From an uncultured bacterium (GTDB taxonomy: Bacteria > Auribacterota > JACPWU01), in NCBI GenBank assembly GCA_964640155.1, contig CAZXEQ010000003.1, positions 1 to 32,000 on the forward strand: a stretch of 32,000 bases of DNA, written 5' to 3'. The notes under the pieces are model-generated. The model was given only the letters and a program-made list of their open reading frames with translations, was not told where the DNA came from and ran no database searches. Positions 3,282 to 23,829 of this stretch are shown here, piece by piece (position 1 is the first letter of the stretch; the number at the start of each line of letters is the position of its first letter). A program made the translations under genes and the position numbers.

Positions 3282-5576
3282 GTGTTTGTGAACTTGGTTG
3301 AATTTGTGGCTCCATTAACAAATAAAATTTCCTTTAATCAATTGATAGGGACTCCATTTCTTAAGGAGAAAACCTTTCAAGACTTCACCTTAAGTTCTAC
3401 CTTTCAGAAAGCTAAAAAACTCCACGCGCAGGGCCTTCAAGAAGACCGGTTTGGTTATAAAAGTCGGAAGGCAGGCATTTTTGGCGAATCTTCAAAAAAA
3501 GATGTAAAAGCCATTTCTGATTTTCTTAAGCTAAAAAAATCTCAAGGAGCTCGTGTTTTAATTCATACGGGCATTGGGGGACAGGCTCTTGGAAATAGGG
3601 CTCAGATTGAGCCAGTTGGAGAAGCAGAAGGTTTTCGTGTGTATGTTTTGGAAAAACTGGGCATTGATTTTAAATCTCTTTTTGAAGAAATTGAAGTTCA
3701 AGGATATCAACCCAGCCAAATTCTGATTCATGCTAGCTCCAAGTCGGGTACGACGGATGAAACGATGATTAATTTCCAAGGTGCCTTGAAGTTTCTCATT
3801 CGCGGCTTAGCTTCAGAATGGAAAATGGATTCTCAGATTGCTAAAAGTCTTATTCAAAAATATGAAGGTGTATCAGATTTGTCAAAATCTTCATTGGTCT
3901 CTCTAAATCTTACCTCCGAAGAGAAAAAGCTTTTGCAATTAGCTTTTGATCGAGTGGTGTTCACCACAACAATCAATATCTCTAAGAGTAGAATTTATGC
4001 TCTTGCTAAAAGTAATTTTGTGAAAGAGTTGTCTCAAGAAGTTCATGGGCAATCAAGAGAGCTCACTACTTTTGCTATTCCTGACAATGTGGGAGGACGT
4101 TTTTCTCGTCGATGTCAGTCAGGTTTAATCAGTGCAGGTTTTTCAGGACGGGATATTTCACAGATTCAATCTGGGTCTGAACAGGTGCTTTCCTTTTTTG
4201 AATCTGATGATCCCCAAGTGAATCCTGCTTTGAAGTTGGCCATTGCTATCTATCTTTTAGAGTATGACTTTATTTCATTTTCTGTTCAAAATTCTAGTTT
4301 GATTGCTGTTGCAGATGCTTTTCGTCAACTTTTTCCTGAGAGTAATGGAAAAGACGGACAAGGACCCTTTGTTGTATCTTCCATAGGTCAAAAAGAACTC
4401 AATGATCGAGCTCAAGCGTCTTTTCAAACAATTTTTTTTATCCTTAATATTGAAAAGGATCAAAAAGGCCAATCTATTGTTCCATTAAGTTTGAAAGATG
4501 CTTCAAAGCCTGTATTTATTTATTCTCAGAACAGTCTTTCAGAAGTCGAGGAAGCTCAAAGAGATCTTTTCTTCGACGATTTTACTGTTTGGTATGGGTT
4601 GCTAAAAGCAGCTGAGATTACAGATCATATAAAGTCGCCTGAATATCAAAAAAGAGATCCTCAAAATCAGCCCTTTGTAGAGCATGGTAAAAAATTAATG
4701 GAAAAAGCGGCTGGTGAATTGAATCGATCTGAAGATGCTTTAAATAAGCGTTATCAAAGTGAATGGCAAAAGGTTGAAAAAGGGCCCACTCTTTCTTCAA
4801 TTGCTTCTTTTGAAAATAAAAAACATGTCAACAATCAGAAATTTAAAAATGATTTACAATCTTTAATTGATCAAGAAATAGAACCTTCTTTAAAAAAACT
4901 TAAGCGCAAGAGTTCTTTACGGGGTGATGAATTATTAAAAATATTAGAAGAAATTGAGTCAAAAAAGAAAAACAGACTTAGTCTGAAAACATTTAATGAG
5001 AAGAGAACTTTAGATGATGAGATTGGCAATCTTTTTGGTCAAATTATTTCGATAGGATTTGAGAAACAAACAGATTCTATTGAGAAAGAAGCAAAACAAT
5101 TGGCTGCTTTGATTTTGTATGCTTTGAAGTATAAAAAAATCATTCTTCCCGTTTTTTATAGTGCTGATGTACAAGCAGAAACTTTGGGAGAGTGGTGGAG
5201 AAGAATGACGGGCAGCTTATTGAGCGATTATGGATTAGGAACCAGAGAGCAACATTCCCATTTTCAAAGCCTTTTAGACGGAAAAGATGTTGTTTGGCCG
5301 CTTCTTGTTGATATGGTGAGCCCTTTATCTGAAATCATTCAAAGGGAAGAGCCTGTTTGTGCTTATGGATTAGCCAAAGATTATCTGGATGGTTTATATC
5401 CTGATGAAGTCAGGAGATTGTATTTGGAAGCAGAAGAGAAAACTTTTTTTGAGATTGCTTGTCGCAGTGTGGCTGTTTTAAAAATGAAAGGCCTTTCTTC
5501 GAAAGAAGCAAAGCTTGAGGCCTATCGTTATTTGGGAAGGGCTTTGGTTCTTGTTCAAGCTTGCACAGAAGTTTGA
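3282..5576 (+). CDS. Glucose-6-phosphate isomerase-like (SIS/PGI superfamily) protein, atypically long with rearranged or duplicated catalytic segment
   Basis: PGI hallmarks read in the translation: IHTGIGGQALG (aa 94-104), SKSGTTDET (153-161), VGGRFS (270-275), ESNGK (353-357), NQPFVEHGK (462-470), GTREQHSHFQ (653-662). The start is uncertain: GTG at 3282, with alternatives GTG 3288 and TTG 3294, and no clear SD. Confidence 0.7.
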   Translation: MFVNLVEFVAPLTNKISFNQLIGTPFLKEKTFQDFTLSSTFQKAKKLHAQGLQEDRFGYKSRKAGIFGESSKKDVKAISDFLKLKKSQGARVLIHTGIGGQALGNRAQIEPVGEAEGFRVYVLEKLGIDFKSLFEEIEVQGYQPSQILIHASSKSGTTDETMINFQGALKFLIRGLASEWKMDSQIAKSLIQKYEGVSDLSKSSLVSLNLTSEEKKLLQLAFDRVVFTTTINISKSRIYALAKSNFVKELSQEVHGQSRELTTFAIPDNVGGRFSRRCQSGLISAGFSGRDISQIQSGSEQVLSFFESDDPQVNPALKLAIAIYLLEYDFISFSVQNSSLIAVADAFRQLFPESNGKDGQGPFVVSSIGQKELNDRAQASFQTIFFILNIEKDQKGQSIVPLSLKDASKPVFIYSQNSLSEVEEAQRDLFFDDFTVWYGLLKAAEITDHIKSPEYQKRDPQNQPFVEHGKKLMEKAAGELNRSEDALNKRYQSEWQKVEKGPTLSSIASFENKKHVNNQKFKNDLQSLIDQEIEPSLKKLKRKSSLRGDELLKILEEIESKKKNRLSLKTFNEKRTLDDEIGNLFGQIISIGFEKQTDSIEKEAKQLAALILYALKYKKIILPVFYSADVQAETLGEWWRRMTGSLLSDYGLGTREQHSHFQSLLDGKDVVWPLLVDMVSPLSEIIQREEPVCAYGLAKDYLDGLYPDEVRRLYLEAEEKTFFEIACRSVAVLKMKGLSSKEAKLEAYRYLGRALVLVQACTEV

Positions 5577-5718
5577 AATAAGAAAAAGTTCTTTTTTGTT
5601 TTATTATGTAAGGGAATTCAGTAGAATTCCTTGCAGCGCAGTAGGTGATGGATCTCATTGCACTTCAACAAGTAAGATGAGAGCGTGTATTGTAACTTAA
5701 GAAAAGGATGGATGGATT

Positions 5719-6303
5719 ATGAAGATGAAAGCCATGATTTTGGGAGCAGTAGCCATTTTATCTATATGTTGGAGTGCGTCTAGTTTTGCAGCAGATCAGC
5801 TTTTAGTTCATGATTTTGATTTAGGAGAAAAACCTTCAGAAAATGCCTATGATTTTGGTGCTTGGAACAAAGACCCCAATGATACGACTCAAGGATGTAC
5901 AGAAAGCTTTGAGACAGCAGAGAGATTTGGCGATAAAGGTATGAGTCTTCGCCTTGATTTTGATGTAGATTCTCCAGCTCCTGCTTACAATGGAATGTGG
6001 ATGAAGCTTAAAGAATTGGATCTCTCCAAGTATAAATTCTTGAATTTCTATATTAAAGGAGATCCACAAAAGGGTTTTAGTAAAGTGGTCAAGCTCGAGC
6101 TTAAGAACCCCAATGAAGTAGGAAAGAATCTTTACACAGAAGTAACAGGTGAATGGAAATTGGCAAAAATTCCTTTGTCTGAATTTCGTGGATTGAAGGA
6201 TTTAACCAAGGCTACAGAATTTGTTTTGGTTTTCGATGATATGAATACGAAGCCTAAAACTGGAACGATTTATTTAGATAATATTTTCTTCTCGGCTGAA
6301 TAG
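5719..6303 (+). CDS. Secreted stand-alone carbohydrate-binding-like beta-sandwich protein (CBM11-like by motif impression)
   Basis: RBS aaggatgg lies upstream of the ATG. Signal peptide MKMKAMILGAVAILSICWSASSFA/AD. The mature part (LLVHDFD...DFDVDSPAPAYNGMWMKL...GTIYLDNIFFS) is paralogous to modules in the next three genes. Confidence 0.8.
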   Translation: MKMKAMILGAVAILSICWSASSFAADQLLVHDFDLGEKPSENAYDFGAWNKDPNDTTQGCTESFETAERFGDKGMSLRLDFDVDSPAPAYNGMWMKLKELDLSKYKFLNFYIKGDPQKGFSKVVKLELKNPNEVGKNLYTEVTGEWKLAKIPLSEFRGLKDLTKATEFVLVFDDMNTKPKTGTIYLDNIFFSAE

Positions 6304-6324
6304 CAGTTGATGTGATGCAAAAAT

Positions 6325-6468: not shown

Positions 6469-8484
6469 ATGAGGAAGTTAGCATTTTTATTGTTGTTCTT
6501 TTTTGTTCAGAAGATTTCTTTTTTAGATGAACTTCCTCAACTTCTTGTTCATGATTTTAACTATGGAGAGTTGAACAATCCTTTGGGCGGTGGCTCAGGA
6601 GCCTGGTGTTTGAATCCCGATGATGCTGAGCAGTTCTGCAATGTTTCCTTGGATGTGGACGTTCGGCATGGTGAAAAAGGTTTTTCCCTGAAAGTAGATT
6701 ATGATTTAGATTCTCCTGAACAGGCTCAAGGTGGATTTTGGACTCAGCTTTTAAAGAAAAACTTAAAAGAATACGATCATCTTAACTTTTTTGTAAAGGG
6801 AGATGCCAAAGCAGGATATACCCATCGATTTAGAATTGAGTTTAAGAAGTCAAAAGCTCCTGATAGTTCTGAAAAGCTAGTAGGTGGTTTTACAGTTGAT
6901 GGAGTAGGAGATGATTGGAAAGAGGTTTCCATTCCTTTGAATAAAATGTCCGGTATTATCGATTGGAATGATATTGAGGAAATGGTCATTGTTTTAAAAG
7001 ATCGCTTGGTTGATAAAAAGGTTGGCACTCTTTATTTCGATGATTTTCGTTTAGTTCGTACAGGTGAACCCGGCCCCAGCATTACCGATTCTGTTCCTAA
7101 AAAAATAGCTAAAGAATCAGACAAGGTTGAGGGAGAAGAAAGAGCGCGCGTTTTAGTGGCGCGTTTAAAAGGTTTTCCTGCACAAGTTGTTCTCAATAAA
7201 AAATTTCCAGAAGATGATAAAGCTTTTTTAAAAGAAGTGGCAAAAGATTCATGGGGCTTTTTTAGAGACATTGTAGATAAAGAAACAAACTTGCCTTTGG
7301 ATAATATTGCTTTTCCCAAAGAGGCGACTTTAGACCCTAAAACTTTTATTGGGGATTACACCAATGTTACTAATGTGGGTCTTTATCTGATGTGTTTAGT
7401 TTCTGGTCTTGATTTTGGCTTTATTGATTCAAAAGAAGCAATCCAGAGAATTACAGGAGTTTTGAACACGATAGAAAAACTCGAATCTCATCATGATTTT
7501 CTTTATAACTATTATGATACGACAACGGGTGAACGCACCAGCAATTTTGTAAGCTATGTCGACGAGGGATGGCTTACAGTTGGACTTATTGTTGTGAAAA
7601 ATGCGTTTCCAAAAGAGTTAGGGGATCGTTGCCAAAAGTTGATTTCAAAAAGAGATTTTTCGTTTTTTTATGACTCTGTAGAAGGGCAAATGTTTCATGG
7701 TTTTTATACCAATGTGGATGTCTATGCAGAGTATCATTATGGGGCTTTTTATACGGAACCTCGTGCCATCAGTTATATGAGTATTGGTAGAGATCAAGCA
7801 CCTATTGAACATTGGTTCAAAATGGCAAGAACCTTGCCCAAGGAGTACACATGGCAAGCACAGGAACCTCAAAATCGTGTCAAAAAAGAGGTTTTGGGAC
7901 ATAAATTTTATGGAGGGTATTATATTTTTAAGGGGACGCCTATTGTTCCAAGTTGGGGAGGAAGTCTTTTTGAAGCTCTTATGCCCACCATGATTATTGA
8001 TGAAAAAGGGTTAGCTCCCAAAGGATTGGGTTTAAATGATGAAAGATATGTGAAAGGGCATATTTCTTATACAAAAGAAGATTTAGGTTATCCTGTTTGG
8101 GGAATGTCTCCTTGTTCTGTTCCTCCAGGTGATGGATATGCAGAGTATGGAGTTCCGGGATTAGGTTTAAAATCATATGGGCAAGGTGTGGTAACTCCTC
8201 ATGTCACTTTTCTTTCGCTTGAGTTTGCCCCTGAGGAATCCATTAAAAATTTGCGTAAAATGATAGAGCTTTATCCTATCTACGGAGAATATGGCTTTTA
8301 TGATGCTGTGGCTGTCAAAACAGGAATTGTTTCAACAAAATACCTTTGTTTAGATCAAGCCATGAGCTTTATTGCGTTAAACAATTATTTAAATGACGGT
8401 GCTATTCGTAAAAGATTTATGTCTGATCCCATTGCTCAGAAGGTGACGGGACTTTTAAAAGAAGAAAAACTTTTTGAGGAGTAA
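6469..8484 (+). CDS. Secreted CBM-like module + DUF3131-type (alpha/alpha)6 glucanase-like protein
   Basis: RBS aaggag lies 10 nt upstream. Hydrophobic N-terminus. Aa ~22-198 carry the shared module (LLVHDFNYGE...DYDLDSPEQAQGGFWTQL...GTLYFDDFRL). The C-terminal ~450 aa carry DYTNVTNVGLYL, SWGGSLFEALMP, YGFYDA and LDQAMSFIALNNYL. These resemble DUF3131 and the glucanase-like region of cyclic beta-1,2-glucan synthases. Confidence 0.8.
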   Translation: MRKLAFLLLFFFVQKISFLDELPQLLVHDFNYGELNNPLGGGSGAWCLNPDDAEQFCNVSLDVDVRHGEKGFSLKVDYDLDSPEQAQGGFWTQLLKKNLKEYDHLNFFVKGDAKAGYTHRFRIEFKKSKAPDSSEKLVGGFTVDGVGDDWKEVSIPLNKMSGIIDWNDIEEMVIVLKDRLVDKKVGTLYFDDFRLVRTGEPGPSITDSVPKKIAKESDKVEGEERARVLVARLKGFPAQVVLNKKFPEDDKAFLKEVAKDSWGFFRDIVDKETNLPLDNIAFPKEATLDPKTFIGDYTNVTNVGLYLMCLVSGLDFGFIDSKEAIQRITGVLNTIEKLESHHDFLYNYYDTTTGERTSNFVSYVDEGWLTVGLIVVKNAFPKELGDRCQKLISKRDFSFFYDSVEGQMFHGFYTNVDVYAEYHYGAFYTEPRAISYMSIGRDQAPIEHWFKMARTLPKEYTWQAQEPQNRVKKEVLGHKFYGGYYIFKGTPIVPSWGGSLFEALMPTMIIDEKGLAPKGLGLNDERYVKGHISYTKEDLGYPVWGMSPCSVPPGDGYAEYGVPGLGLKSYGQGVVTPHVTFLSLEFAPEESIKNLRKMIELYPIYGEYGFYDAVAVKTGIVSTKYLCLDQAMSFIALNNYLNDGAIRKRFMSDPIAQKVTGLLKEEKLFEE

Positions 8485-8487
8485 TCT

Positions 8488-11346
8488 ATGCGTTTTTTAA
8501 GACATTTCACGTGGGCATTGTTTTTACTCATTTCTATGCAAGGAATACTTTTTTCTGGAACAGCTTCTGATTCTAAAGTTCTTGTTGTGAATACTTTTGA
8601 TATGGGGCTTAATTTTAATAATTTAGGAGGACGTCAAGGAGGGGATCAAGAAGCTCCAGGGCTTTTGTTTCCTGGCATTCATTATATCTCTTCAGAAATG
8701 GGAGGAGGGCCTACAGGAGAATACCTAAAACTTGTCTATGACGTTCGAGCTGCCGGTAGTTTTTCTTTTTATTGGATGAAGGTGGGTCAACCTCTTGGAA
8801 CAGGTTTGGGAGAAAGCCTTCCTTTAAATCTATCTTCTTATGATTATCTTGGATTTTGGGTGAGAGGAGAGCAGGGACAAGAACGTTTTAAAATAGAAAT
8901 ACATCAAGATACGGACGACGATGGGCAATATACATCAGGGAAAGATATTTCAAGCTCGGTTTATATTGATCATTATTTAAAAAGTGGAATTCAGAAAAAG
9001 TGGGGCAAAGCCTATGTTCCTCTTAAAGAATTTCAAGTCATTACAGACTGGTCAAAAATTTTAGAAATTGTAATTACATTTGAAAATTCTGCCAACCTTC
9101 AAAAAGTAAGTTCTGTAGATTTAGATGATATTGTTTTTGGAAGGATTTCGGATGTTTCCGCTGAGGTAAAGGAAAATTTAAATTTAAAAAGAGAGTCTCT
9201 TTTTTTAGGAGAATCAAAAATAGAAGACGGAACTGTTTTAGATCGCTCCAAAACTTTTTCTCTTGTCTTAGGGGATGAGTTGAGAAATATAGAATCTGTT
9301 TGGTTGATGACCTCATCGGATGGACTTTTGTGGAAAGTGGTTGGGAAATCTTTTGTAAATGGAGAAAAAATAATCAATATTCCCTGGCAGAGCACATTTT
9401 TTAATGCCGAAGAAAGGTTTATGTTGGATGTATGGGTCTTTAACCCTTTGGGTGAAAAGAAGACTCTAGAAAAGCCTTTTCAAGGTCTTAAATTGCAGGC
9501 TTTAAATGATGACTCTTTTCTTGATGAAATAGAGAGACGAGCTTTTCAGTATTTTTGGCAAGAATGGAGTCCCAGAACAGGATTGTTTTCAGATGCAACA
9601 ACCAATGACTGTGCCAGTATTGCAGCCACTGGATTTGGATTGTCTGCTTATTGTGCTGCAGTTGAAAGAGGTTGGGTTGGCAAGGAAGAAGTACAAAAGC
9701 GTGTTTTAAAAACAATCGACACATTTTTAAATAAAGCTCAGAAGCGTTCAGGTTTTTTTTATCATTTCTTGAAAATGGAAGATGCAAGCCGATTTGGGAA
9801 TAGTGAGGTTTCAGTGGTTGATACAGCTATTCTTTTATGGGGGATGTTAACAGCTTCGGAGTATCTGGGTGGAGAAATTAAAACAAAAGTAGATCAGATT
9901 TATTCTGAAATTATTTGGAGTGATTTTTTAGTTCAAGAGAAAGATGACCTTCATTTTAATCAGTTTAGAATGGGGTGGAATCCAGAAGGAGGAGCTGAAG
10001 GAACATTTTTAGATGCATATTGGGATTATTATTCAGATGAAGCTATACTCATTACTTTACTTGCTGTTGCTTCTCCAACACATCCTGTTTCTGCAGATGT
10101 TTTTTATGCTTGGAAACGTGAAACTGCAAATTATGCGTCCGGTCGCCCTTTTATTCAATCTTGGCATGGGTCTCTTTTTGCTTATCAATACGCACATGCT
10201 TGGCTTGATTTTAAGGGTTTAAAAGATAAAAAGGGAATTAACTGGTGGTTGAACACAGTAGATGCCACAGTTGCAAACCGACAGTTTTGTATTGATGAAA
10301 TGGAAAAATTCAAAGGTTATGGCCCGCAAAGTTGGGGTGTTACCTCCATGGCTTATCCGAATGTATTAGAAGTTGAGGGGGTGGCTCATATAACAGAAGA
10401 TTATACGATGAGTTATGGAACTTTTCCTTGCGGTACAAATTTTGCTCTTCACGATGGTACGATTGCTGCGTCAGGTCCTGCCGGATCTTTCCCATTTTTG
10501 CCAGAAGTCATTTTACCCACTTTAAAGAAAATGGTTTCTCAGGTGCCTCAAAGTTGGGGAGAATTTGGTTTTAGATCTTCTTACAATCTTGATATGAATT
10601 GGTTTTCTACCAATTATTATGGGATTGATTTGGGTCCCACATTGATGGCAATAGAAAATTATCGTACGGGGTTTTTCTGGAATTTGATGAAGAAAAACGT
10701 TTATGTAAAAGAAGTTCTACAAAAGTGTGAATTTCAAGAGGATTCAACGATTTATGAATCTCCTAAGATTGAAGATAAGCCTACACCTAAAGAATTAAGC
10801 GTAGATCATTCTACCCATAACATTCAGAATCTCATTGTGGAAGATTTTGATGATATGGAGCATGTCAAAAAAGCCCTCGGCGTGAATTTTTCTTCTTGGA
10901 GTAAAGATCCTACAGACGAAACACAAAAAGCCTCTGCCCAGATTGATACGACTGAAAATTCTCATTCGAACGGTGCTTCCTTAAAAATTGATTATGATGT
11001 GGATTCACCACGACCTGCATTTAATGGATTTTGGTTAAAACTTAATAATATTAAAGTTTCTGCTTATTCTACTTTTGAGTTTTTAATTAAGGGTTCCCAG
11101 AAAGGTTTCCCTAATAGATTTAAAATAGAGCTTAAAGGGGACGGGAAAGTGGGTACAACCTATGTGAGCGGTATAGGCTCAGAGTGGAAAAGAATAAGTA
11201 TTCCTCTCTATGAATTTCATGGTTTATCAAATTGTAAAAAGTTTACAGAATTTACAATTGTTTTTGAAGATCATACCGTAGGACAGAAGGTAGGGACTGT
11301 TTATATTGATGATATTCAGTTTTCAGCTGGGGGAGTTCAAAAGTAA
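8488..11346 (+). CDS. Secreted CBM-like / PF10091 (putative glucoamylase, GH144-like) / CBM-like three-part protein
   Basis: Starts 3 nt after the previous stop, with RBS gaggag. Signal-like N-terminus. The central region has CASIAATGFGL, GFFYHFL, SVVDTAILL, SWHGSLFAYQY and GIDLGPTLMAIENYRTG. The C-terminal 174 aa (nt 10822-11343) are a second copy of the shared module (DYDVDSPRPAFNGFWLKL...GTVYIDDIQFS). Confidence 0.8.
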   Translation: MRFLRHFTWALFLLISMQGILFSGTASDSKVLVVNTFDMGLNFNNLGGRQGGDQEAPGLLFPGIHYISSEMGGGPTGEYLKLVYDVRAAGSFSFYWMKVGQPLGTGLGESLPLNLSSYDYLGFWVRGEQGQERFKIEIHQDTDDDGQYTSGKDISSSVYIDHYLKSGIQKKWGKAYVPLKEFQVITDWSKILEIVITFENSANLQKVSSVDLDDIVFGRISDVSAEVKENLNLKRESLFLGESKIEDGTVLDRSKTFSLVLGDELRNIESVWLMTSSDGLLWKVVGKSFVNGEKIINIPWQSTFFNAEERFMLDVWVFNPLGEKKTLEKPFQGLKLQALNDDSFLDEIERRAFQYFWQEWSPRTGLFSDATTNDCASIAATGFGLSAYCAAVERGWVGKEEVQKRVLKTIDTFLNKAQKRSGFFYHFLKMEDASRFGNSEVSVVDTAILLWGMLTASEYLGGEIKTKVDQIYSEIIWSDFLVQEKDDLHFNQFRMGWNPEGGAEGTFLDAYWDYYSDEAILITLLAVASPTHPVSADVFYAWKRETANYASGRPFIQSWHGSLFAYQYAHAWLDFKGLKDKKGINWWLNTVDATVANRQFCIDEMEKFKGYGPQSWGVTSMAYPNVLEVEGVAHITEDYTMSYGTFPCGTNFALHDGTIAASGPAGSFPFLPEVILPTLKKMVSQVPQSWGEFGFRSSYNLDMNWFSTNYYGIDLGPTLMAIENYRTGFFWNLMKKNVYVKEVLQKCEFQEDSTIYESPKIEDKPTPKELSVDHSTHNIQNLIVEDFDDMEHVKKALGVNFSSWSKDPTDETQKASAQIDTTENSHSNGASLKIDYDVDSPRPAFNGFWLKLNNIKVSAYSTFEFLIKGSQKGFPNRFKIELKGDGKVGTTYVSGIGSEWKRISIPLYEFHGLSNCKKFTEFTIVFEDHTVGQKVGTVYIDDIQFSAGGVQK

Positions 11347-16108: not shown

Positions 16109-16147
16109 CGTCTTCTTACGACTTAACACTTATGACTTATAACTAGA

Positions 16148-19100
16148 TTAGATGTCTCCCGTCAAGCGGATGAAGAACTTATGAGCATTGTCTTCTGCGC
16201 CTGTTCTAAGATCATCTGAGAAGTCTGTGAAGTTATATCCTGCTCCTAAACGAATATGATCGATCACTTGTCGATCCACTTCGACCAAAAATCCTGATTT
16301 GCGATCGCCTGTTTCAGTTTCTTTTAAGATTCGATATTCCCCGGCAAGATCCCATTTCTTCGTGATGTGGAAGTTGATACGGTTAATCCAAAGATGATTC
16401 TTAACTTCGATAAAATCACTGTCTAGGACGCTGACTTCACCAAATTTAAACGCATATTTTTCTACCAACTGGAACCAACGATTAATGTCGTAAGCTCCTT
16501 CAATAGAGGCAAGATGTGATCTTTCCAAAATATTCAGACCAAAATCAGACTGAGCTTCAGGATCATCATCACTTAAATAAGAATATTTACCAATAAAATT
16601 AAGTCTGTCTGCATAGACGGGACGGTAGGCAAAGCCGGTACCAGCTTCATAGAAGCAAGCTGCATCAATATCTGATGAGCGATTTTCTGTGAGTCCATAA
16701 TTAACTCTACCTAACCATTGTAAGTCTTCTGTTAGTTGCCACTTGATTAAGTTTTGAGTCAAATATTGACGCAAGGTGACATCCGAAAAGCCTTCGTCTT
16801 GGCGGAATTCAAACTTTGTGGAGGCGTTTAACCAATTCCATTTGGAGTAGGAGAGTGTACCTGAAACAGCGTCTCTACTTAAATCATCATCACTATCAAT
16901 ACGTTCATATGTAGATCCAAAAGACCATCCTTTTTGGAGACGTGTTTCATAACCAAAGAGGCTAGATTCTAACTGGCCTTTTCTGTAGTTTGTATACTGT
17001 TTTTCGGTGGTGAAATTGCTTCTTTCATCAATGTCAGTTCGTGTTCCAAATGTGGTTCGAGAAGCTCTTCCTAATGAATGATCCGTGCCCATCATTTGAT
17101 TGATATACATACGTGTTTTCTCACTGGTTTGCGCTTGAACACCTACCAAAGTTGAATTCCCACGTGTTCCAACCGTTTCTTGTCCTTGTAGCCAAATCTT
17201 TTCTGTGACTTTGACATCTGCTCCAACAGAGGTTTGATGATTATCTGGACCGGCAACAGTCACTTGTTGAGCAATAAAGGGGATAAATCTTCCACTCCAA
17301 TGATAACGAGCTTTTGCAGCAAGCGTGTCAGAAGACTCGTTAGTGAATTGGAAAAAGCCCGAAAGAGGATCATCAAAGGTTAAAGGATCTTCAATTTCAC
17401 GATGTTGATATTCGCCAGTCAATTCCCATTTTCCAATGTCATGGGTTAATTGGGCTGAAGTAGTGTGACTTCTGCTTCCATCAACCAATGAAGAGGAAAG
17501 GGGATTGGGTCCACCAATGGTAGTAGGGGAATAAAGACCCACAGAACGTATAGGATCATTTAATAATTTTTGAGTGTCATGACGAACATTTAAGAAAGTA
17601 GTGGCAGCTAGCTTCAGACTTGCTTCCACACCCATTTTTTGTGTGCCTTCTTCGAGGAGAGAAGAGGTGTTGGAAAATCCTGGAGCAATATATGTGTAAT
17701 AAGCTTTGGTTTTTAGGCGATCAGAAAAAGCTGTTTGTGCTTTTAAGCTGTAGGCCTGTTCATAATCCAGATTTGTGTTGAGATAATCTTGAGGGCTAAT
17801 GGCTTTATATTCATCCAAAGTTACATTGATGCTTCGGGTGTTCCCCTGAATGGTTCTAAAATAGGTGGGATCCGAAGCGTTAAAAGAAATACCCCCATCT
17901 TGTGAATAGCGTGTTCCAGATTGATCCCCTCGAGATTGAGCATATTCTGCAATGAATTTTGTCCATTTGCCAAGTTTCATCAAGATATCTCCACCGAGCA
18001 TCTTGTAATCAGGTCCTTGCCGATCTTCTTGAACAAATGTTCCACCGACACGCACATTGTCTAGGACTTGCTGATAGCCTCGAACAGCACGTGTAGGATT
18101 CTCAAATGGGGAAGAGGATAAATGCTCATAATCCACAACAAGAGAAGATGTATTTCCAGGTAAAATATTAGACGAAACAATACTATTAGAACCTGTTACA
18201 GAGGAGAGGGGTTTAGTAAGAATAATTCTTCCACTTCTGTAGTCCATTTCATAGTCAAGTCCTTCCGTCAAATCGATACGTGATGAAACACGCCCTGTTA
18301 CTCGGTCCCGTGTAACGACTTGCACTTTTTCACTTCCTTCTACGACTTGGTTGTATTTTAGATAATAAAGAGAACCACCAGTTCCTAAGAATTCGTCATG
18401 ACCTGCATTAGTTCCATCTTCAGCATAAAAACCTGTAATTCCTCCATAAGGATCACCGTAGGTATTGGTTTTTTCTCTTTGGGCATGAAGTTTTGCTCCG
18501 GATAAAGTTCTATTGTAAGTTGCAAGATCAAGATCAGTTAATCCGGTTTCAAAGCTACCCCATTGAAAATAGGATTTATCCATTTCAAGGAGCAAGAAAA
18601 GATTATTTCGTGTGTCCGTGGCTCTATAATCAATCACCGAACCATCCCCATAAACAGGATAATAACGATCAGGATCCAAATTAGTAAAAAATTTGGTGTT
18701 ATTCGAGCGGGATGTATCCAAAGAAGACGTGATTAAATAACGTCCCTTCACTTTTGCCTTCAAATAATAGGCAATACGCCCATTTTCATAAAAACCATCA
18801 TCAAATTCATCTTCATCTGAAACAGATTCAAGATGAGACGTAACATCTTTTCCGCCTAATTCACCTTCTGCCATACCCACCATGAAGAAATAATTATCTT
18901 GAACATCTAGCTCTCGAACATAAGTAATCGTTTTTCCCTTGGCATCAGTGTTGCTAATTTTTACAACCTGAACTCCTGGGGGAAGAAGGACTTCTTTTTC
19001 AAAAGTTCCATCTTCATGAACATAGGTGTCTTGGCCATTAATTTTAATCGTAGTCCCTGCTTCTGCATGACCTCGAACCATCACGCTGTTTTTATTTGTT

Positions 19101-21655
19101 ACAGGGATAGATTGATGGGGACGTTCGTTATCGTCTAATTGCACAAAAGAAGAACGTTCCACAACTGAAGCGATTTTCTTTTTATGAGTTGGGCGAAGAG
19201 TTTTAGTTACAGTCCAATCTTCATGCGTACCATCTGTTACAAAAAGTTGATAATAATACTCTTTCCCAGCTTCAATGGATGTTCCTTCATCCGTTTTTCC
19301 ATCCCATGAGGTGCGAGAGGGGACAGTAGGCCCCCCTTCTAAGGTTTTAATGGTTTTACCTTTATGATCACGAATTTCAATTTTCCATCCGGTAACCGTA
19401 TCCAAGTAGTTTCCATCCATATAGAAATACAAGGGTTCAAGCCATTTGTCTGAAAGGATTTGAGGTTCATTATTGCTGGCTTGCACATCGAGTTTAGGTG
19501 TGAATTTGTCATATTGCTGCGTGACATGAACTTCAATTTTGTCTTTATAGGCTTCTGGAATTGAAGTATCTGCAGGAACGCTCACAGCAAAATTGGCTTT
19601 GGATAAAATACCTTCAGTTGTTCTGACTAAAAAGGATTCTTCAGTCACAAAAGTTGATCCTGGTGGGAGGCTATGACGATCCACTTTGATTAAATGACGG
19701 CCTGGTTTGACGCCGGGGACATGATAGCGACCATAACGATCAGTATAAACAACGGTTCCTTCTTCCGTCGCTAAACGCACATCAGGAATTCCAAGTTCAC
19801 CTTTATCTTGTTTCCCATTTTTATTTTGATCATTAAATACTTTACCAATAATAGTGCCCAAATCAAAAGTGGGATCACCCAGCACAATGGTTTGTGTTGT
19901 GGACGTATTAGACAATTGAATGTTTAAATTTGAACTACGTGCAACAGCAGGGGAAATATATCTTCTTCCAAGCTCACTTCGTGTTCCTGTTTGAGTAACA
20001 TAGCTAATGGTGACTTCTTCTGAGCCTTGAATGGTTCCTAAATTAAAAGTAAGAGGAGAGTTTCTGGTTGGATCTGTGATTCTCTCACCGTTTCTTTGAG
20101 CTGTTCCATTACGATATTCAAAAGCTTCAGGAAGTTCATCGATTAAAAGTACATTATTGATGGCAAAGGTTGAATTATTTTTAAGATGTAGTTTATAGAC
20201 TAGTAAATCTCCTCGTGAAGCCTGCTTTTTATTTACATCCTTTCTCAAGACAAGGGGATAGCCAGGATCCATAGGAAGAGAGATTTTGGTATCAACCACA
20301 GCGCTAAAAAGCTCTCCATGATCACCCCCAACGACAGCATCATTGATTCGAGAAGGGAAGGTATAGCCTTCAGCAATGGCTCTTAAAGAACGAGAGGATC
20401 CATTTGGAACAATGAATTGAAAGGGGTTATCGGAATCTGTTGCAATCACACGCCCTGAAGCATCTAATAATTCAACGCGTGTTCCTGGAATCAATTGACC
20501 ATTGGTTGAACTGAAAACATCTCCTGTGATTTTTACAGGACCATTATCAAAAGTGGCACAAGCACGATCAAAAACAATATCCCCACCCCCTCCAGCGCCG
20601 GCATCTCCTAAAATGACAAGTACCGCAAAAGCTGTACCCGCAGGCGCTTTTCCAGAAACAGAAAATTGTTTGTATTCACCAAAGGCATTTGCGCTTGTAA
20701 TTTCATCGGAAAGAACTTCTTCGAGCAAATGATCATTAGCATCTTTAAATTCGATTTTAAGTTGGCCAAAAGCTCCTCCAGCCATATTGTCTGTTCGCGC
20801 ATAAATGCTGAAATCTATTTCAGCATCAGGAAGAACACCCCCAATGATTTGAAAAATTCCTGTAAACATGCCTCCAAAAATACCCATTTGAATGGCTCGG
20901 CTTCCATCCAGAGCTGAATGAGCCAATGTGGCGTTATCCCGTTGAGTCACTAGAGCAGATCCCAAAGGAAAACGTGTCCAACCTGGAAGAATTTCTTCTC
21001 CACTGGCTCCTGTTCTTTCAAAGCTAGAGTTGCTTGGAAAGTTGCAACTGGAAGCCGAAACACCGCTGGATATAATTGCAGAAACATCATCAACGAAATA
21101 TTCTGAAGATGAAGCTCCATTCATAGAATGAACAATGGTAAAGCGAATACTTGTGGTTCCAGTAGGAACTGTTCCTGAGATGGTGCTTGCAGAATAAGTG
21201 GATGACGTAGCAATGTTAGTGGAGCTTTCGACGGGTGCACTTGCGCTTCCTATAAATTCTATTTTGAGATGAAGGAAAGACAAAGTGTCTACACCTGTTT
21301 TTTTTGCATATGCTTGAAAGACGACAGTATCTCCAACGGAAAAGCCACTTGTTACATCTTGAAAAGCTCCAGAAAATAAAACTCCAGGACCTCCGAAGGA
21401 AGCTAGTTTTAAATAACCAGATCCAGTTCTGGCACTTCCATTTCCAAATGCAACATTCCACCATTCCGCAGCAGCTGTTGTAACCCCTGCTGTTCCGAAT
21501 TCTGTCCAGCTATCTGCGTTAAAAGTAGGCATTCCTGATTCAAAGCCCTTGTTGTCCAGAACTTCAGCAGCCTGGGCGGGAGTACTAAAAAAAATAAGTC
21601 CAAGTAAAAAGAGGGAGAGTTTCAGAGAATGTGTGTATGAAAGAGTCTTCTTCAA
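16148..21655 (-). CDS. Giant (1835 aa) outer-membrane-type protein: 2 CBM4_9-like modules + adhesin-type Ig-like repeats + large C-terminal beta-barrel-like region
   Basis: TTG start with gagg 6 nt upstream. Signal peptide ...FFSTPAQA/AE. Two CBM-like modules (NKGFESG...YFVDDVSA and NSSFERTG...GDIVFDRA). A DUF11-type repeat (GDLLVYKLHLKNNSTFAINNVLLIDELPEAFEY). An SdrD-B-like repeat (GKVFNDQNKNGKQDKGELGIPDVRL...GRYHVPGVKPG). A FlgD-Ig-like segment (WDGKTDEG...YYYQLFV). The last ~900 aa show alternating amphipathic strand patterns up to ...GAGYNFTDFSDDL. Confidence 0.85.
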   Translation of the reverse strand: MKKTLSYTHSLKLSLFLLGLIFFSTPAQAAEVLDNKGFESGMPTFNADSWTEFGTAGVTTAAAEWWNVAFGNGSARTGSGYLKLASFGGPGVLFSGAFQDVTSGFSVGDTVVFQAYAKKTGVDTLSFLHLKIEFIGSASAPVESSTNIATSSTYSASTISGTVPTGTTSIRFTIVHSMNGASSSEYFVDDVSAIISSGVSASSCNFPSNSSFERTGASGEEILPGWTRFPLGSALVTQRDNATLAHSALDGSRAIQMGIFGGMFTGIFQIIGGVLPDAEIDFSIYARTDNMAGGAFGQLKIEFKDANDHLLEEVLSDEITSANAFGEYKQFSVSGKAPAGTAFAVLVILGDAGAGGGGDIVFDRACATFDNGPVKITGDVFSSTNGQLIPGTRVELLDASGRVIATDSDNPFQFIVPNGSSRSLRAIAEGYTFPSRINDAVVGGDHGELFSAVVDTKISLPMDPGYPLVLRKDVNKKQASRGDLLVYKLHLKNNSTFAINNVLLIDELPEAFEYRNGTAQRNGERITDPTRNSPLTFNLGTIQGSEEVTISYVTQTGTRSELGRRYISPAVARSSNLNIQLSNTSTTQTIVLGDPTFDLGTIIGKVFNDQNKNGKQDKGELGIPDVRLATEEGTVVYTDRYGRYHVPGVKPGRHLIKVDRHSLPPGSTFVTEESFLVRTTEGILSKANFAVSVPADTSIPEAYKDKIEVHVTQQYDKFTPKLDVQASNNEPQILSDKWLEPLYFYMDGNYLDTVTGWKIEIRDHKGKTIKTLEGGPTVPSRTSWDGKTDEGTSIEAGKEYYYQLFVTDGTHEDWTVTKTLRPTHKKKIASVVERSSFVQLDDNERPHQSIPVTNKNSVMVRGHAEAGTTIKINGQDTYVHEDGTFEKEVLLPPGVQVVKISNTDAKGKTITYVRELDVQDNYFFMVGMAEGELGGKDVTSHLESVSDEDEFDDGFYENGRIAYYLKAKVKGRYLITSSLDTSRSNNTKFFTNLDPDRYYPVYGDGSVIDYRATDTRNNLFLLLEMDKSYFQWGSFETGLTDLDLATYNRTLSGAKLHAQREKTNTYGDPYGGITGFYAEDGTNAGHDEFLGTGGSLYYLKYNQVVEGSEKVQVVTRDRVTGRVSSRIDLTEGLDYEMDYRSGRIILTKPLSSVTGSNSIVSSNILPGNTSSLVVDYEHLSSSPFENPTRAVRGYQQVLDNVRVGGTFVQEDRQGPDYKMLGGDILMKLGKWTKFIAEYAQSRGDQSGTRYSQDGGISFNASDPTYFRTIQGNTRSINVTLDEYKAISPQDYLNTNLDYEQAYSLKAQTAFSDRLKTKAYYTYIAPGFSNTSSLLEEGTQKMGVEASLKLAATTFLNVRHDTQKLLNDPIRSVGLYSPTTIGGPNPLSSSLVDGSRSHTTSAQLTHDIGKWELTGEYQHREIEDPLTFDDPLSGFFQFTNESSDTLAAKARYHWSGRFIPFIAQQVTVAGPDNHQTSVGADVKVTEKIWLQGQETVGTRGNSTLVGVQAQTSEKTRMYINQMMGTDHSLGRASRTTFGTRTDIDERSNFTTEKQYTNYRKGQLESSLFGYETRLQKGWSFGSTYERIDSDDDLSRDAVSGTLSYSKWNWLNASTKFEFRQDEGFSDVTLRQYLTQNLIKWQLTEDLQWLGRVNYGLTENRSSDIDAACFYEAGTGFAYRPVYADRLNFIGKYSYLSDDDPEAQSDFGLNILERSHLASIEGAYDINRWFQLVEKYAFKFGEVSVLDSDFIEVKNHLWINRINFHITKKWDLAGEYRILKETETGDRKSGFLVEVDRQVIDHIRLGAGYNFTDFSDDLRTGAEDNAHKFFIRLTGDI

Positions 21656-21804
21656 AATTGCCTCGCTATGGTTTACATTTAAGAAAGATTTTTTCCCCTC
21701 TTAGATTATCCCTAAGGGACTAGAAGATCTTGCGAGGGAATGGGGAATTACCTGATAATACATTAACCCCTATCGCTCCCCTTAATCACAGGGGAGAAAA
21801 GAAA

Positions 21805-23277
21805 CTAAAATCTGTTGATGTCAATCTTCACACCGACTCTGAAATCCCAATCGGGTTGATCACCATCAGGTTCATCTTTAAAATGATCAATCATATGATC
21901 GTATTCTGCAAAAATTTTAAAATTATATAGCCATTCATTTTTTTCAAAACGAGTTGTGTGAAAGGGCATATAGCGAGCTCCAAAACCTGCAAAAGCTCTA
22001 TTTTGAAAGAAAAATTCTCTTTGAGTAGATGTAAGCTCAACCTTAGCATAAGGCATTAACGGTGGGATATTGCCTATCCACGGAAATTTAACACCAAGCC
22101 AAGCAACATCTGTCCAAGTGAAACTTTCATAATCTTCACTGTTAAAGTCGGTTTTCTTCCATACATTCTCCATGAAAAGTTCACCCCAGAGATAATCAGA
22201 AAAACCTTCTCTTTCTTTATCAAAGGGTTTATCCCAACCCCATGCTTTATAAAGGCCCATTCCTGCTCGCCAATCATAAGTAGGAGCAGCAGAGTCAGTG
22301 TCTCGTAAATGAGAAAGATCCATATATTGTCCGAATAAGCGAAAATTACGAAGCCAATCTAGCCAAGGTGTTTGTTTTAAAAATCCAACACTTTCAAGAA
22401 GGTAATATTCTAATCCTGCTGCACCTACAAACTTATTTTCAAACGGGGTGTCATTGGAGCTGAGTGAAACGGTGCCTTCAATAAAAGGATTAAGGGTAGG
22501 CCATCCTTCTTTGAAGTGAAGTCCCTTCATAATAATTCTAAGTGAATGGAAACCAACAATATCATTAAAATAATCTGGATTTGAGATGGTATTGGGTGAA
22601 TCAAAGTTAGTTCTTCTCCAACTAAACTCGCCGAAAGTTTGATAATCGAATCGATCAGTCTCGTTTTTAAGCTCTGTGCCTGGAATAGCAACTCGTTGAA
22701 TCTTTTCATCTAAATGTAAAGGATAAGCTGATTTAGGTTTGAGTGAAGAAGGTGCAGTTTCGTTAGTAGATGAAGATACATTTTCTGGGACGACAGGGGT
22801 TTCTGATATTGCTTCAGTCTTTTCTTCAGAATGAAGCTTGATGCCTTCAGCCGAAGCTTTTTCTGCTACCTGCTTTGCTTGATCTAAAGTTGTATAAGAT
22901 TGATGTCCCACCCAGAAAAGGGAAGTCAATGAACCATCAACTGAAGGAAGTTCAAGTTCACGAATGCTCCCTCCTTGATGGATCTTAAGATGTTCATCAA
23001 TGAATTTTTGAGCAGAATCAAGATCTCGTGTTCCTATGAGGGGTTGGGATTCAACAACAGTCCCTTCAAAAGTTGAAACAACAGAGTATTGAGAGTTTTC
23101 TTGAGCGTTTTCAAAGAGGAGAAAGTCTTGATAAGAAGTTAAGCCTAATTTTTCTTGTAACCAAGAAGGAATCTGGAAAGAATCCTGCGCTTTTGAGGAT
23201 GAGGTGATTGCTAAAAAAAATCCCATCATCAAAAACAGACGAACAATATGATGAGCCGCCCCCTTCGTGTTTCTCAT
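21805..23277 (-). CDS. Secreted 490-aa protein with C-terminal beta-barrel-like region (putative outer-membrane protein)
   Basis: RBS aagga lies 5 nt upstream. Signal-like MRNTKGAAHHIVRLFLMMGFFLAITSSSKA/QD. The C-terminal half is rich in aromatic/alternating strands and ends ...VGVKIDINRF, a terminal Phe typical of OMP beta-signals. Confidence 0.75.
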   Translation of the reverse strand: MRNTKGAAHHIVRLFLMMGFFLAITSSSKAQDSFQIPSWLQEKLGLTSYQDFLLFENAQENSQYSVVSTFEGTVVESQPLIGTRDLDSAQKFIDEHLKIHQGGSIRELELPSVDGSLTSLFWVGHQSYTTLDQAKQVAEKASAEGIKLHSEEKTEAISETPVVPENVSSSTNETAPSSLKPKSAYPLHLDEKIQRVAIPGTELKNETDRFDYQTFGEFSWRRTNFDSPNTISNPDYFNDIVGFHSLRIIMKGLHFKEGWPTLNPFIEGTVSLSSNDTPFENKFVGAAGLEYYLLESVGFLKQTPWLDWLRNFRLFGQYMDLSHLRDTDSAAPTYDWRAGMGLYKAWGWDKPFDKEREGFSDYLWGELFMENVWKKTDFNSEDYESFTWTDVAWLGVKFPWIGNIPPLMPYAKVELTSTQREFFFQNRAFAGFGARYMPFHTTRFEKNEWLYNFKIFAEYDHMIDHFKDEPDGDQPDWDFRVGVKIDINRF

Positions 23278-23394
23278 CGTATCCTTACTGAAAAGGTGAG
23301 AACTAAAAACAATAGGGACATACTAATAAAGCGTACGTTTTTGTGCAAGGAAAATTTTAGAAAGATTAAGATTTCTAAATTTGCTGATAAAAAA

Positions 23395-23829
23395 TTATTG
23401 AATCAGTTCTTGAACATTATCATCAAATTCAATATTCACCAAAGTCCAATCCACGTTTTTATAGAAAAGAAATGTCCATCGCAAAGGATAATTTGTGTGT
23501 TTGGAAAGAAAGATAACTTTGCACAAGGTATCGGCTGTTGTAGAAGAGGAGACATAGACGCTTCCTTGTACTGAGCCATAAAGAGAAATTGCATTGGTGG
23601 TTTGGCCAATCAAATTTTCGACTTGGGCAGGATTTTTACCAATGGCGCCTCCTTCAATGATTTTTTGAATAGCAGGTTGAACTTGGCCATTTTGAAGTTG
23701 AGTAAAGAAGGCGTGAATTTTTTCTTGAACAGTAGAAGGAAGAGTTTCTGCGTTTGTGGTCTTTGAAAAGCTTAAGAAACTTGTTAATGCCAATAAACTT
23801 AAAACGATAGAAGTTTTACGTGTTTTCAT
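23395..23829 (-). CDS. Small (144 aa) secreted protein of unknown function
   Basis: An internal ATG at 23829 is preceded by aaggag. It gives MKTRKTSIVLSLLALTSFLSFSKTTNA/ET, a clean signal peptide. The longer listed ORF start at 23886 has no RBS and adds a non-signal extension. Confidence 0.7.
   Translation of the reverse strand: MKTRKTSIVLSLLALTSFLSFSKTTNAETLPSTVQEKIHAFFTQLQNGQVQPAIQKIIEGGAIGKNPAQVENLIGQTTNAISLYGSVQGSVYVSSSTTADTLCKVIFLSKHTNYPLRWTFLFYKNVDWTLVNIEFDDNVQELIQ

Follow-up and report, generated by a model that had tools for sequence, protein, structure and literature searches.

The window, the 32,000-nucleotide stretch of DNA analysed here, carries between positions 3282 and 23829 a run of genes that an earlier note had read as one locus for capturing and degrading a glycan. 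All of the genes lie where that note had placed them. The DNA belongs to a MAG of the PVC group, for whose relatives the label "Chlamydiae" is uncertain.

3282-5576, + strand: PGI-superfamily protein of 764 aa without a signal peptide, first gene of the conserved enzyme block (Pfam PGI, 24 bits)
5719-6303, + strand: free-standing, predicted secreted CBM11/CBM30-like module of 194 aa (Pfam CBM_11, E 1.5e-4, below the cut-off)
6469-8484, + strand: 671-aa protein with a CBM11/30-like module and a DUF3131/GH189-like (alpha/alpha)6 domain without the nucleophile (PDB matches)
8488-11346, + strand: GH144 enzyme of 952 aa with a CBM11/30-like module at each end (PF10091, 203 bits; CBM30, 35.6 bits, above the cut-off)
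11363-13324, - strand: GH144 enzyme of 653 aa with an N-terminal CBM11/30-like module (PDB 8xul (XcSGL), 1e-62; 5gzh (CpSGL), 7e-61)
13773-15728, + strand: 651-aa protein with a DUF3131/GH189-like (alpha/alpha)6 domain without the nucleophile and a C-terminal CBM9 (8wy1, 4.9e-30; CBM9_1, 70 bits; DUF3131, 26.7 bits)
15757-16129, - strand: frameshifted remnant of a PF05635 four-helix-bundle ('23S rRNA IVP') gene (tblastn)
16151-18829, - strand: giant protein, residues 943-1835 (893 aa), conserved C-terminal very large beta-barrel (AF2)
18830-20539, - strand: giant protein, residues 373-942, stalk of CarboxypepD_reg-like, DUF11/CLIPPER, SdrD_B, FlgD_ig and Glucodextran_B Ig-like domains (Pfam, NCBIfam)
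20540-21568, - strand: giant protein, residues 30-372, two beta-sandwich modules of ~170 aa each (hhalign)
21805-23277, - strand: predicted secreted 490-aa protein, conserved partner of the giant and probable outer-membrane protein (C-terminal beta-signal)
23395-23829, - strand: predicted secreted orphan of 144 aa, or 163 aa from an upstream TTG (no family match)

A hydrophobic signal-like N terminus is present in all of the predicted secreted proteins, as read from the translations. Pfam HMM searches matched PF10091 in all four of the proposed (alpha/alpha)6 glucanase-like enzymes (79, 203, 233 and 61 bits; cut-off, 27), which fall into the two paralogous types described earlier, GH144-like (8488-11346 and 11363-13324) and DUF3131/GH189-like (6469-8484 and 13773-15728). 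The 952- and 653-aa proteins are clear members of GH144 by sequence, sharing with the characterized endo-beta-1,2-glucanases CpSGL of Chitinophaga pinensis (5gzh/5gzk) and XcSGL (XCC2207) of Xanthomonas campestris (8xul) the (alpha/alpha)6 catalytic domain (E ~1e-62), the acid Glu (E211/E239) and an acidic residue at the E142 position (PMC12102758). Alignment places E429 of the 653-aa enzyme at CpSGL E211 (acid) and D364 at E142 (candidate base) (PMC12102758), and paralogy with this enzyme puts E518 and D445 of the 952-aa protein within the motifs that hold the acid and the candidate base of GH144. Unlike CpSGL and XcSGL, both have one or two CBM11/30-like modules attached, and their genes have no SusC/SusD, GH3, GH94 or ABC importer genes beside them.

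The likeness of the second type to Cgs, proposed from DUF3131 and a GSLFE.LMP motif, extends to the fold and the acid/base but not to the nucleophile. The best match of both proteins was the GH189 domain of TiCGS (8wy1; 6.5e-38 for the 671-aa protein, which also matched Cgs 8rf9 at 1.7e-37 and GH192 8xuj at 3e-20), and both retain its 'VD' motif and, as E430 and E198 in the 671- and 651-aa proteins, respectively, its acid/base E1356; the nucleophile E1442 is replaced by P548 and A286 (alignment to GH189; PMC10834661). Since Pro or Ala stands in place of the nucleophile Glu, as at the equivalent position of GH144, retaining transglycosylation is unexpected, and with the acid/base Glu kept the two proteins are probably hydrolases rather than transglycosylases. 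They further differ from the TiCGS domain in being stand-alone, secreted and CBM-fused and in lacking its ~165-residue insertion.

Counting the free-standing one, the enzyme set has six carbohydrate-binding modules on five proteins, five CBM11/CBM30-like and one CBM9. The free-standing binding module noticed earlier is the 194-aa protein, a paralogue of the four CBM11/30-like modules within the enzymes with orthologs of 60-85% identity; the family profile matched structures of CBM30 (1wmx/2c24, 1.6e-5) and CBM11 (1v0a, 0.06). The PGI-like gene at the upstream edge encodes PGI motifs (GIGG, SKSGTTDET, VGGRFS and ESNGK) that align to solved PGIs, but its product scored at most 74 bits against NCBIfam PGI equivalogs, far below their cut-offs of 350-712 (443 where 74 was scored), and only 5 full-length homologs were found among 5.8 billion proteins. 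It adjoins the same CBM and GH genes at L089/L090 and L091; its Auribacterota homolog L092 does not have these neighbours.

Clustering of several SGL-clan genes is also seen in the Listeria innocua SOGP, Ignavibacterium album SGL and Bacteroides SGL clusters (PMC8861115). Known beta-1,2-glucan clusters include a GH3 beta-glucosidase and/or a GH94 phosphorylase and a Sopn-binding ABC transporter, to which I. album adds a TonB-dependent transporter, whereas none of these parts occurs in the window or the relatives' flanks (PMC8861115). The reported absences were confirmed within 3282-23829, where no SusC/SusD, TonB plug, sugar ABC importer, GH3, GH1 or GH94 enzyme or regulator was found.

Downstream of the enzymes, three co-directional genes for proteins of 144/163, 490 and 1,835 aa form the giant-protein operon. 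It takes up 7.7 kb of the 20 kb that the earlier note described as almost entirely carbohydrate-related, a description not confirmed for this part. The barrel-like C terminus ascribed to the giant was recovered as a very large beta-barrel of ~30-36 long strands (AF2; pLDDT 81, pTM 0.78), with SlpA, MtrB, SprA and LptD as top Foldseek matches. The best fold match, Deinococcus radiodurans SlpA (8ae1, 7zgx, 8agd; E 3e-9, TM-score ~0.27), is a 30-strand barrel bridging outer membrane and cell wall, and likewise combines an N-terminal non-barrel region with a very large C-terminal barrel; the giant, however, lacks an SLH domain, shows no detectable similarity to SlpA in sequence and has CLIPPER, SdrD and Ig domains at its N terminus. 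No Pfam model covers the barrel module, which had 2,947 matching cluster representatives, the full-length matches listed extending to the C terminus. As in SlpA, some members of the family carry a peptidoglycan-binding domain, here OmpA, N-terminal to the barrel (five of five tested), which suggests that the N-terminal region is periplasmic and counts against a surface capture arm. The barrel belongs to a widespread, unnamed family of envelope proteins that nearly everywhere else occurs without enzymes of the kind encoded here.

Chlamydial OmcB is a DUF11 envelope protein. The DUF11/CLIPPER and SdrD_B domains of the giant, CLIPPER being an isopeptide stalk domain (PMC12617251), are shared with fibrillar-adhesin stalks (PMC12617251, PMC9210967) and with OmcB; unlike the giant, neither OmcB nor classical fibrillar adhesins have a terminal outer-membrane barrel module of ~890 aa. 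The two N-terminal modules are paralogous (94.5% probability, E 8e-8; hhalign) and showed no relationship to the CBMs of the enzymes (probability <3%; hhalign). The claim of CBM-like modules in the giant stands at the level of the fold, with CBM22, SGBP-B, CBM4 and CBM16 as the top folds of a low-confidence model (pLDDT 55), but not at that of sequence: no CBM HMM matched the giant even at an E of 5, and the modules had no Pfam match. They are confined to the clade of the window, and all three lineages that carry them also carry the enzyme block, a non-independent observation because these lineages are closely related.

The 490-aa protein ends in a conserved GVK[FI]..RF beta-signal, the sole basis for the barrel nature assigned to it, and Pfam, NCBIfam and PDB searches returned no match. 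Its homologs lie directly upstream of a giant homolog at L002 and in at least 10 Omnitrophota loci, where the pair sits among the housekeeping genes dap, uvrA and ftsH. The 144-aa protein had no homolog among 87 loci besides the window's own Logan copy.

Comparison of neighbourhoods separated the two gene sets. The order and orientation of the PGI-like, CBM, GH189-like, GH144 and GH144 genes are kept at L089/L090 and L091 (54-85% identity), and in two related lineages this five-gene block lies on contigs other than those bearing the giant. The closest relative (72% identity) has the block on a separate contig of the same sample and no glucanase within 10 kb downstream of the giant. The relatives' contigs are short, with breaks at RHS repeats, and the linkage comparison reaches 10 kb. 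Outside the clade of the window, none of 80 barrel loci from about ten phyla, including Omnitrophota, Nitrospirota, Acidobacteriota, Planctomycetota and Proteobacteria, had a GH144 or GH189 homolog within that distance of the barrel module. Synteny of the giant with PF10091/DUF3131 genes, a check proposed earlier, was found in part: only the GH189-like+CBM9 gene stays beside it, in two relatives (61-62% identity), convergent and with other genes between (L003-5, an ortholog of 54.5% identity; L006, a fragment).

The reading that we favour, at somewhat better than even, is that two independent things stand side by side in the window, a beta-1,2-glucan toolkit and a general envelope module made up of the 490-aa protein and the giant. 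Judged by homology, which agrees with the target suggested earlier, the secreted enzyme block most likely cuts beta-1,2-glucan. It would be a Sec-exported set of depolymerizing enzymes, with the GH189-like+CBM9 gene as a sixth gene nearby: the GH144 pair would act as inverting endo-beta-1,2-glucanases; the GH189-like pair, which keeps the clan acid Glu and has lost the retaining transglycosylase nucleophile of the synthase, would most likely hydrolyse as well; the CBM11/30-like and CBM9 modules may keep the enzymes on glucan chains; and sophoro-oligosaccharide products would have to be dealt with by genes in other parts of the genome. The envelope module is spread over many Gram-negative phyla, and the giant would be a structural outer-membrane protein, a tether or pore comparable to SlpA or OmcB rather than a dedicated glucan receptor, its large C-terminal barrel bearing a stalk of Ig-like, CLIPPER and SdrD domains and, within this clade alone, two putative N-terminal jelly-roll modules.

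It is unlikely that the enzymes instead trim or turn over the cell's own periplasmic osmoregulated or cyclic beta-1,2-glucans, as OpgG/OpgD do in the periplasm of E. coli, a kind of processing with which XCC2207 and OpgD of Xanthomonas are associated. A biosynthetic role has been described for some periplasmic beta-1,2-glucanases (PMC10514313, PMC11228985), Sec-type signals alone make the periplasm the default location in a diderm, an importer, beta-glucosidase and phosphorylase are absent nearby, both in the window and in the relatives' flanks, and one relative of the GH189-like pair is a domain of the glucan synthase itself. However, no Cgs/NdvB or OpgH synthase was found in the window or related loci, the transglycosylase nucleophile is gone and a cytoplasmic PGI-like gene is conserved as the first of the block. 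Six CBMs spread over five proteins are moreover typical equipment of enzymes directed at exogenous polymers. The sole Cgs that turned up (L093) lies on an unrelated contig.

Slightly less credible still is the single uptake system of the earlier note, in which the giant would capture external beta-1,2-glucan and import it through its barrel with help from the 490-aa protein, independently of TonB and Sus, for degradation by Sec-exported glucanases in the periplasm. The window has the two gene sets side by side, the GH189-like+CBM9 gene lies beside the giant in L003-5 and L006, the best fold matches of the clade-specific tandem modules are CBM22, SGBP-B, CBM4 and CBM16, the barrel is comparable in size to those of SlpA, SprA and LptD and could in principle pass oligosaccharides above the porin limit, and the enzymes have Sec-type signals only, with no other importer nearby. 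Nevertheless, such a system is not supported by this analysis, because the barrel family occurs nearly everywhere else without glucanases (all 80 of the loci from outside the clade). The separate contigs in two relatives, the closest relative's giant without a glucanase neighbour, the OmpA domains N-terminal to the barrel and the poorly modelled N terminus without a CBM HMM match also count against it, and the giant and its adjacent enzyme gene are convergent and hence not co-transcribed.

CBM11, CBM30 and CBM9 are families associated with reducing ends and with glucans of beta-1,4 or mixed linkage. A target of that kind, reached through a PF10091/DUF3131 specificity yet to be characterized, is similarly improbable: the modules match these families, SGL-clan Group 4 has no known substrate and the GH189-like pair departs from all characterized GH189 enzymes at the nucleophile position, but the CBM matches are weak and mostly below Pfam cut-offs, the GH144 pair scores >200 bits to characterized beta-1,2-specific enzymes with clan-defining residues kept, and every SGL-clan enzyme of known substrate is beta-1,2-specific (PMC12102758).

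Two minor features remain. The PF05635 remnant, with fragmented ORFs and 36% identity to the intact L003 gene (E 9e-7; tblastn), has no part in any glycan function. Past the right border, at a distance of 5.6 kb, a histidine kinase is paired with an OmpR-type regulator.

Our ORF map of the window agrees with the gene order of the earlier note and comprises the following features:

3282-5576, + strand: PGI-like protein of 764 aa, bearing a Lys/Glu-rich insertion
5719-6303, + strand: secreted module of 194 aa
6469-8484, + strand: large, secreted GH189-like protein of 671 aa
8488-11346, + strand: large, secreted GH144 protein of 952 aa
11363-13324, - strand: large, secreted GH144 protein of 653 aa
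13773-15728, + strand: large, secreted GH189-like+CBM9 protein of 651 aa
23829/23886 down to 16148, - strand: three co-directional genes for proteins of 144/163, 490 and 1835 aa

All of these proteins except the PGI-like one begin with a signal-peptide-like hydrophobic stretch, as read from the translations. The absence of SusC/SusD, a TonB plug and a sugar importer, as previously noted from sequence, was borne out by Pfam and NCBIfam searches of every ORF in the window, which also returned no GH1, GH3 or GH94 enzyme. The locus thus lacks the pairing of SusC (a TonB-dependent receptor with plug) and SusD that marks a Sus-type utilization locus. It also differs from known beta-1,2-glucan clusters, in which GH144 occurs with an ABC importer, with GH3 or GH94 and, in some, with a TonB-dependent transporter (PMC8861115).

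In the HMM check, PF10091 was matched above the cut-off by all four large enzymes. The 952- and 653-aa proteins (203 and 233 bits, respectively) belong to the GH144 catalytic-domain family close to CpSGL and XcSGL, with the 653-aa protein aligning to XcSGL (8xul) at 1e-62 and to CpSGL (5gzh) at 7e-61. The general acid of GH144 is CpSGL E211/XcSGL E239, and the most plausible general base occupies the position of CpSGL E142 (PMC12102758). In the printed PDB alignment, CpSGL E211 corresponds to E429 of the 653-aa protein; in the 8xul chain, a Gln at position E239 is aligned with E429 (we read this chain as the inactive E239Q variant), and CpSGL E142 corresponds to D364, within an SS[IV]DTALLM motif common with XcSGL. 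In the 952-aa paralog these motifs contain E518 and D445, as placed through paralogy, so that the acid Glu and an acidic residue at the E142 position are both present. The suggestion of the earlier note that the enzymes act on beta-1,2-glucan is supported by homology: given the strength of the GH144 match and the retention of the acid and the candidate base, beta-1,2-glucan is well supported as their predicted target, and action on a different substrate is rather improbable.

The 671- and 651-aa proteins resemble the cyclization domain of the synthase Cgs (671 aa, 6.5e-38 against 8wy1 and 1.7e-37 against Cgs 8rf9; 651 aa, 4.9e-30 against 8wy1); the match of the 671-aa protein to GH192 EeSGL1 (8xuj; 3e-20) is weaker than its GH189 match. 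The acid/base residue TiCGS E1356, the Glu of LASEAR, is conserved as E430 in the 671-aa protein and as E198 in the 651-aa protein. The GH189 nucleophile, E1442 in the motif WGISE (PMC10834661), is replaced in both, by P548 (WGMSP) in the 671-aa protein and by A286 (WGWSA) in the 651-aa protein. Because this Glu is missing, we did not file the two proteins as GH189 transglycosylases. Ala also occupies the nucleophile position in GH144 enzymes. We infer that both would be inverting hydrolases of the GH189/GH144 clan; their exact family may be GH189-related, GH192-like or Group 4. Both are related to the GH189 domain of the synthase but are secreted, fused to CBMs and devoid of the nucleophile, and they offer a direct test of the interconversion between retaining transglycosylases and inverting hydrolases in clan GH-S. 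A metagenome scan with the GH189-like+CBM9 protein returned only one true Cgs (L093, 5066-13849), unrelated to the window's clade, and gave no synteny information.

Five segments of approximately 170 aa are clearly paralogous. They comprise the 194-aa protein, the C-terminal part of the 952-aa protein and one N-terminal segment each in the 671-, 952- and 653-aa proteins. The profile of this module family matched CBM30 structures at 1.6e-5 and CBM11 at 0.06. The N-terminal module of the 952-aa protein scored 35.6 bits against CBM30 (cut-off, 27), and the other copies in the window fell below the Pfam cut-offs, the best CBM_11 E-value being 2.1e-9 among seven copies scanned (two of them orthologs from related lineages). 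A CBM9 (70 bits) forms the C-terminus of the 651-aa enzyme. The enzyme-borne CBM11/30-like modules and the CBM9 are predicted carbohydrate binders.

The order of five genes (PGI-like, free-standing CBM, GH189-like, GH144 and convergent GH144) is kept in two places: contig 3 of GCA_016178055.1 together with a Logan contig (L089/L090; 54-71% identity) and a contig of SRR22387960 (L091; 61-85% identity). Past the last GH144 gene, neither runs on into the GH189-like+CBM9 gene and the 1835-aa giant; the block is followed in L089 by a pilin-like protein and a secreted 539-aa protein, and in L091 by an immunity protein and an RHS toxin tip. RHS/YD-repeat toxin and immunity-like genes border the block or the giant in relatives (L091 11438-12321 and, at two loci with giant orthologs, L003 1-5273 and L004 1-2582); the RHS genes fall at contig ends, so the assemblies probably break there. 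The first protein of the block carries the PGI motifs and belongs to the superfamily; it falls short of the equivalog cut-off for glucose-6-phosphate isomerase and of the full-length architecture (best NCBIfam equivalog score, 74 bits; cut-off, 443; aligned residues only ~90-370). Only five full-length homologs were found in 5.8 billion proteins. The one homolog from outside the clade (Auribacterota, L092; 36% identity) lies among folE, GT2, CMP-sugar and NeuB genes with no glucanases; because it sits apart from glucanases, the tie of the PGI-like gene to the block is clade-level synteny and not functional proof.

The giant protein consists of N-terminal modules, an Ig-like stalk and a C-terminal barrel module. 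Its Pfam matches are confined to the middle (CarboxypepD_reg, DUF11/CLIPPER, SdrD_B, FlgD_ig and Glucodextran_B), and these domains are of stalk type (PMC12617251, PMC9210967). No Pfam model matched the C-terminal 893 aa (window 16151-18829, - strand). At E-value limits of 1e-3 and 1e-30, the barrel-module family comprises 2,947 and 896 cluster representatives (50% identity), respectively, and among the full-length matches checked, the barrel match reaches the C-terminus of proteins of ~900 to 7,600 aa. AlphaFold2 (64-sequence alignment; pLDDT 81, pTM 0.78) modelled the module as all-beta, a smaller beta domain of ~200 aa preceding ~30-36 long strands; the model may hold one barrel or two, with or without a plug. 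Foldseek ranked Deinococcus SlpA, MtrB, SprA and LptD highest, outer-membrane barrels of the largest size known, at a low TM of ~0.27. At the level of predicted fold, both programs confirmed the previously proposed barrel-like C-terminus. We rejected a TonB-dependent transporter or Sus receptor identity: neither the plug nor the 22-strand TonB_dep_Rec barrel had a Pfam match in the giant, even at E of 5, and TonB-dependent transporter structures are weak fold matches of the barrel, ranked behind SlpA, MtrB, SprA and LptD. A type V autotransporter identity was also rejected, as the 12-strand PF03797 barrel was unmatched and the model has ~30-36 long strands. The family occurs in cultured Lysobacter, Luteimonas, Kangiella, Colwellia, Neisseria sp. 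and Orbus, and one member is mis-named 'TonB-dependent receptor'. No published description of the family was found in the literature searched. Very large, confidently modelled and spread from Omnitrophota to Lysobacter and Neisseria without a Pfam model or a described function, the family may outrank the enzyme block as a lead.

Residues 30-372 of the giant form two paralogous modules (hhalign, 94.5%) that are confined to the window's clade. Their model, built from four sequences only (pLDDT 55), gave tandem CBM22, SGBP-B, CBM4 and CBM16 as top folds, and hhalign found no relation between these modules and the CBMs of the enzymes. Of the earlier description of the giant as CBM-bearing, what stands is a hint, and no more, of a CBM-like fold. 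A peptidoglycan-binding OmpA domain (PF00691) is present in five members of the family (P0007, P0079, P0095, P0246 and P0285), and in each of them it precedes the barrel on the N-terminal side, in the company of DUF11 and Ig domains. OmpA domains are periplasmic, and therefore the N-terminal region is periplasmic in these members, which suggests a tether between outer membrane and cell wall. The arrangement can be likened to the N-terminal region of SlpA and to chlamydial OmcB. The giant in the window matches the SlpA-like connectors at the fold level of the barrel and has no SLH or OmpA domain. By analogy, the position of OmpA in these family members somewhat weakens the case for an outward-facing capture arm in the window's giant.

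The 490-aa protein (window 21805-23277, - strand) had no Pfam, NCBIfam or PDB match and showed no relation to the giant barrel by hhalign. Homologs are the immediate upstream neighbours of the giant in L002 (the relative at 72%) and in at least 10 Omnitrophota loci, where the pair sits between dapF/dapA/dapB and uvrA/ftsH. Throughout the Omnitrophota loci L009, L011, L013-L016, L018-L020 and L022, the 490-aa family always precedes a giant homolog. Its C-terminus carries a conserved beta-signal, GVK[FI]..RF (also written GVKF..RRF). No homolog of the 144-aa protein was found in any locus examined.

Scanning GTDB species genomes for giant homologs yielded 80 loci, from Omnitrophota (32-38% identity), Nitrospirota, Acidobacteriota, Planctomycetota and Alpha-, Gamma- and Delta-proteobacteria; in none of these loci did a homolog of GH144 or GH189 lie within 10 kb of the giant homolog. 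Among the loci with giant orthologs, L003-L005 (62%) carry an ortholog of the GH189-like+CBM9 gene convergent to the giant, past a small PF05635 gene; L006 (61%) retains a fragment of this ortholog past an inserted ATPase gene; and L002 (72%) has no glucanase within 10 kb downstream of the giant. The GH189-like+CBM9 gene is the only enzyme gene to travel with the giant, in one clade only and convergently, and the five-gene block is found elsewhere. The fusion of enzyme block and giant operon into one system, proposed in the earlier note, is not supported: 0 of the 80 loci have a glucanase within 10 kb, and the block is conserved apart from the giant. Together, the giant and the 490-aa protein form a separate envelope module that is widespread and had no description in the literature searched.

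In Proteobacteria, beta-1,2-glucans serve in signalling and osmoprotection. To our knowledge, few loci for their degradation are known, and all couple GH144 to GH3/GH94 and a dedicated transporter. Processing of an endogenous periplasmic glucan by the enzymes is unlikely. Integrated uptake by the giant together with the glucanases could draw on the convergent GH189-like+CBM9 gene and is set against the 80 loci; we consider it quite improbable. A further reading is a long shot: the widespread barrel would have been recruited in a PVC-group lineage by the addition of two N-terminal jelly-roll, glycan-binding modules, forming a TonB-independent gate that would admit beta-1,2-glucan chains of other bacteria to the periplasm for degradation there by the CBM-bearing GH144 and nucleophile-less GH189-like hydrolases. 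If true, this would be a new 'selfish' route of polysaccharide uptake; extended to the whole barrel family, with its ~2,900 clusters, the reading would imply a general pore for macromolecules.

The enzyme block would be the first beta-1,2-glucanase block of this kind to be reported from an uncultured lineage of the PVC group. We found no literature on GH144 in Omnitrophota or Chlamydiae. The MAGs of relatives carry the NCBI name "Chlamydiae bacterium", and the homologs that come next in similarity belong to Auribacterota and Omnitrophota; we regard the source as an uncultured member of the PVC group whose phylum is uncertain. We did not rely on an obligately intracellular, chlamydial way of life for it, as the label comes from NCBI names only and the relatives' contigs bear complex I, RHS toxins and pilin-like genes.

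To the right of the locus (window 24077-28750) lie an HlyD/ABC/ABC-2 exporter operon and a TreT trehalose synthase with DUF5752; no link of the exporter and TreT genes to the glucanases was found. Further right-hand genes encode a DUF3568 protein and a pair of histidine kinase and OmpR-type regulator. At the left edge, an ORF of 1039 aa (window 11-3130, + strand), which the window edge may truncate, has imperfect Pro-rich repeats of 42 bp (14 aa) at its N-terminus (repeats at 20-163), no family match and no homolog in related loci. An Rfam search gave zero matches, the promoter and terminator scan was uninformative (counts equal to shuffled expectation), and the search for an operator shared by eight intergenic regions found only two 11-mers in common, about the number that we estimate for chance. 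Between the divergent 144-aa gene and hlyD lies a GC-rich hairpin (window 23949-23978, - strand; 11 pairs, 8 of them G-C) with no T-run or Rfam match. Between the GH189-like+CBM9 gene and the giant, window 15757-16129 (- strand) holds a frameshifted remnant of a PF05635 gene ('23S rRNA intervening sequence protein', a four-helix bundle), which is intact at the same position in L003-L005.
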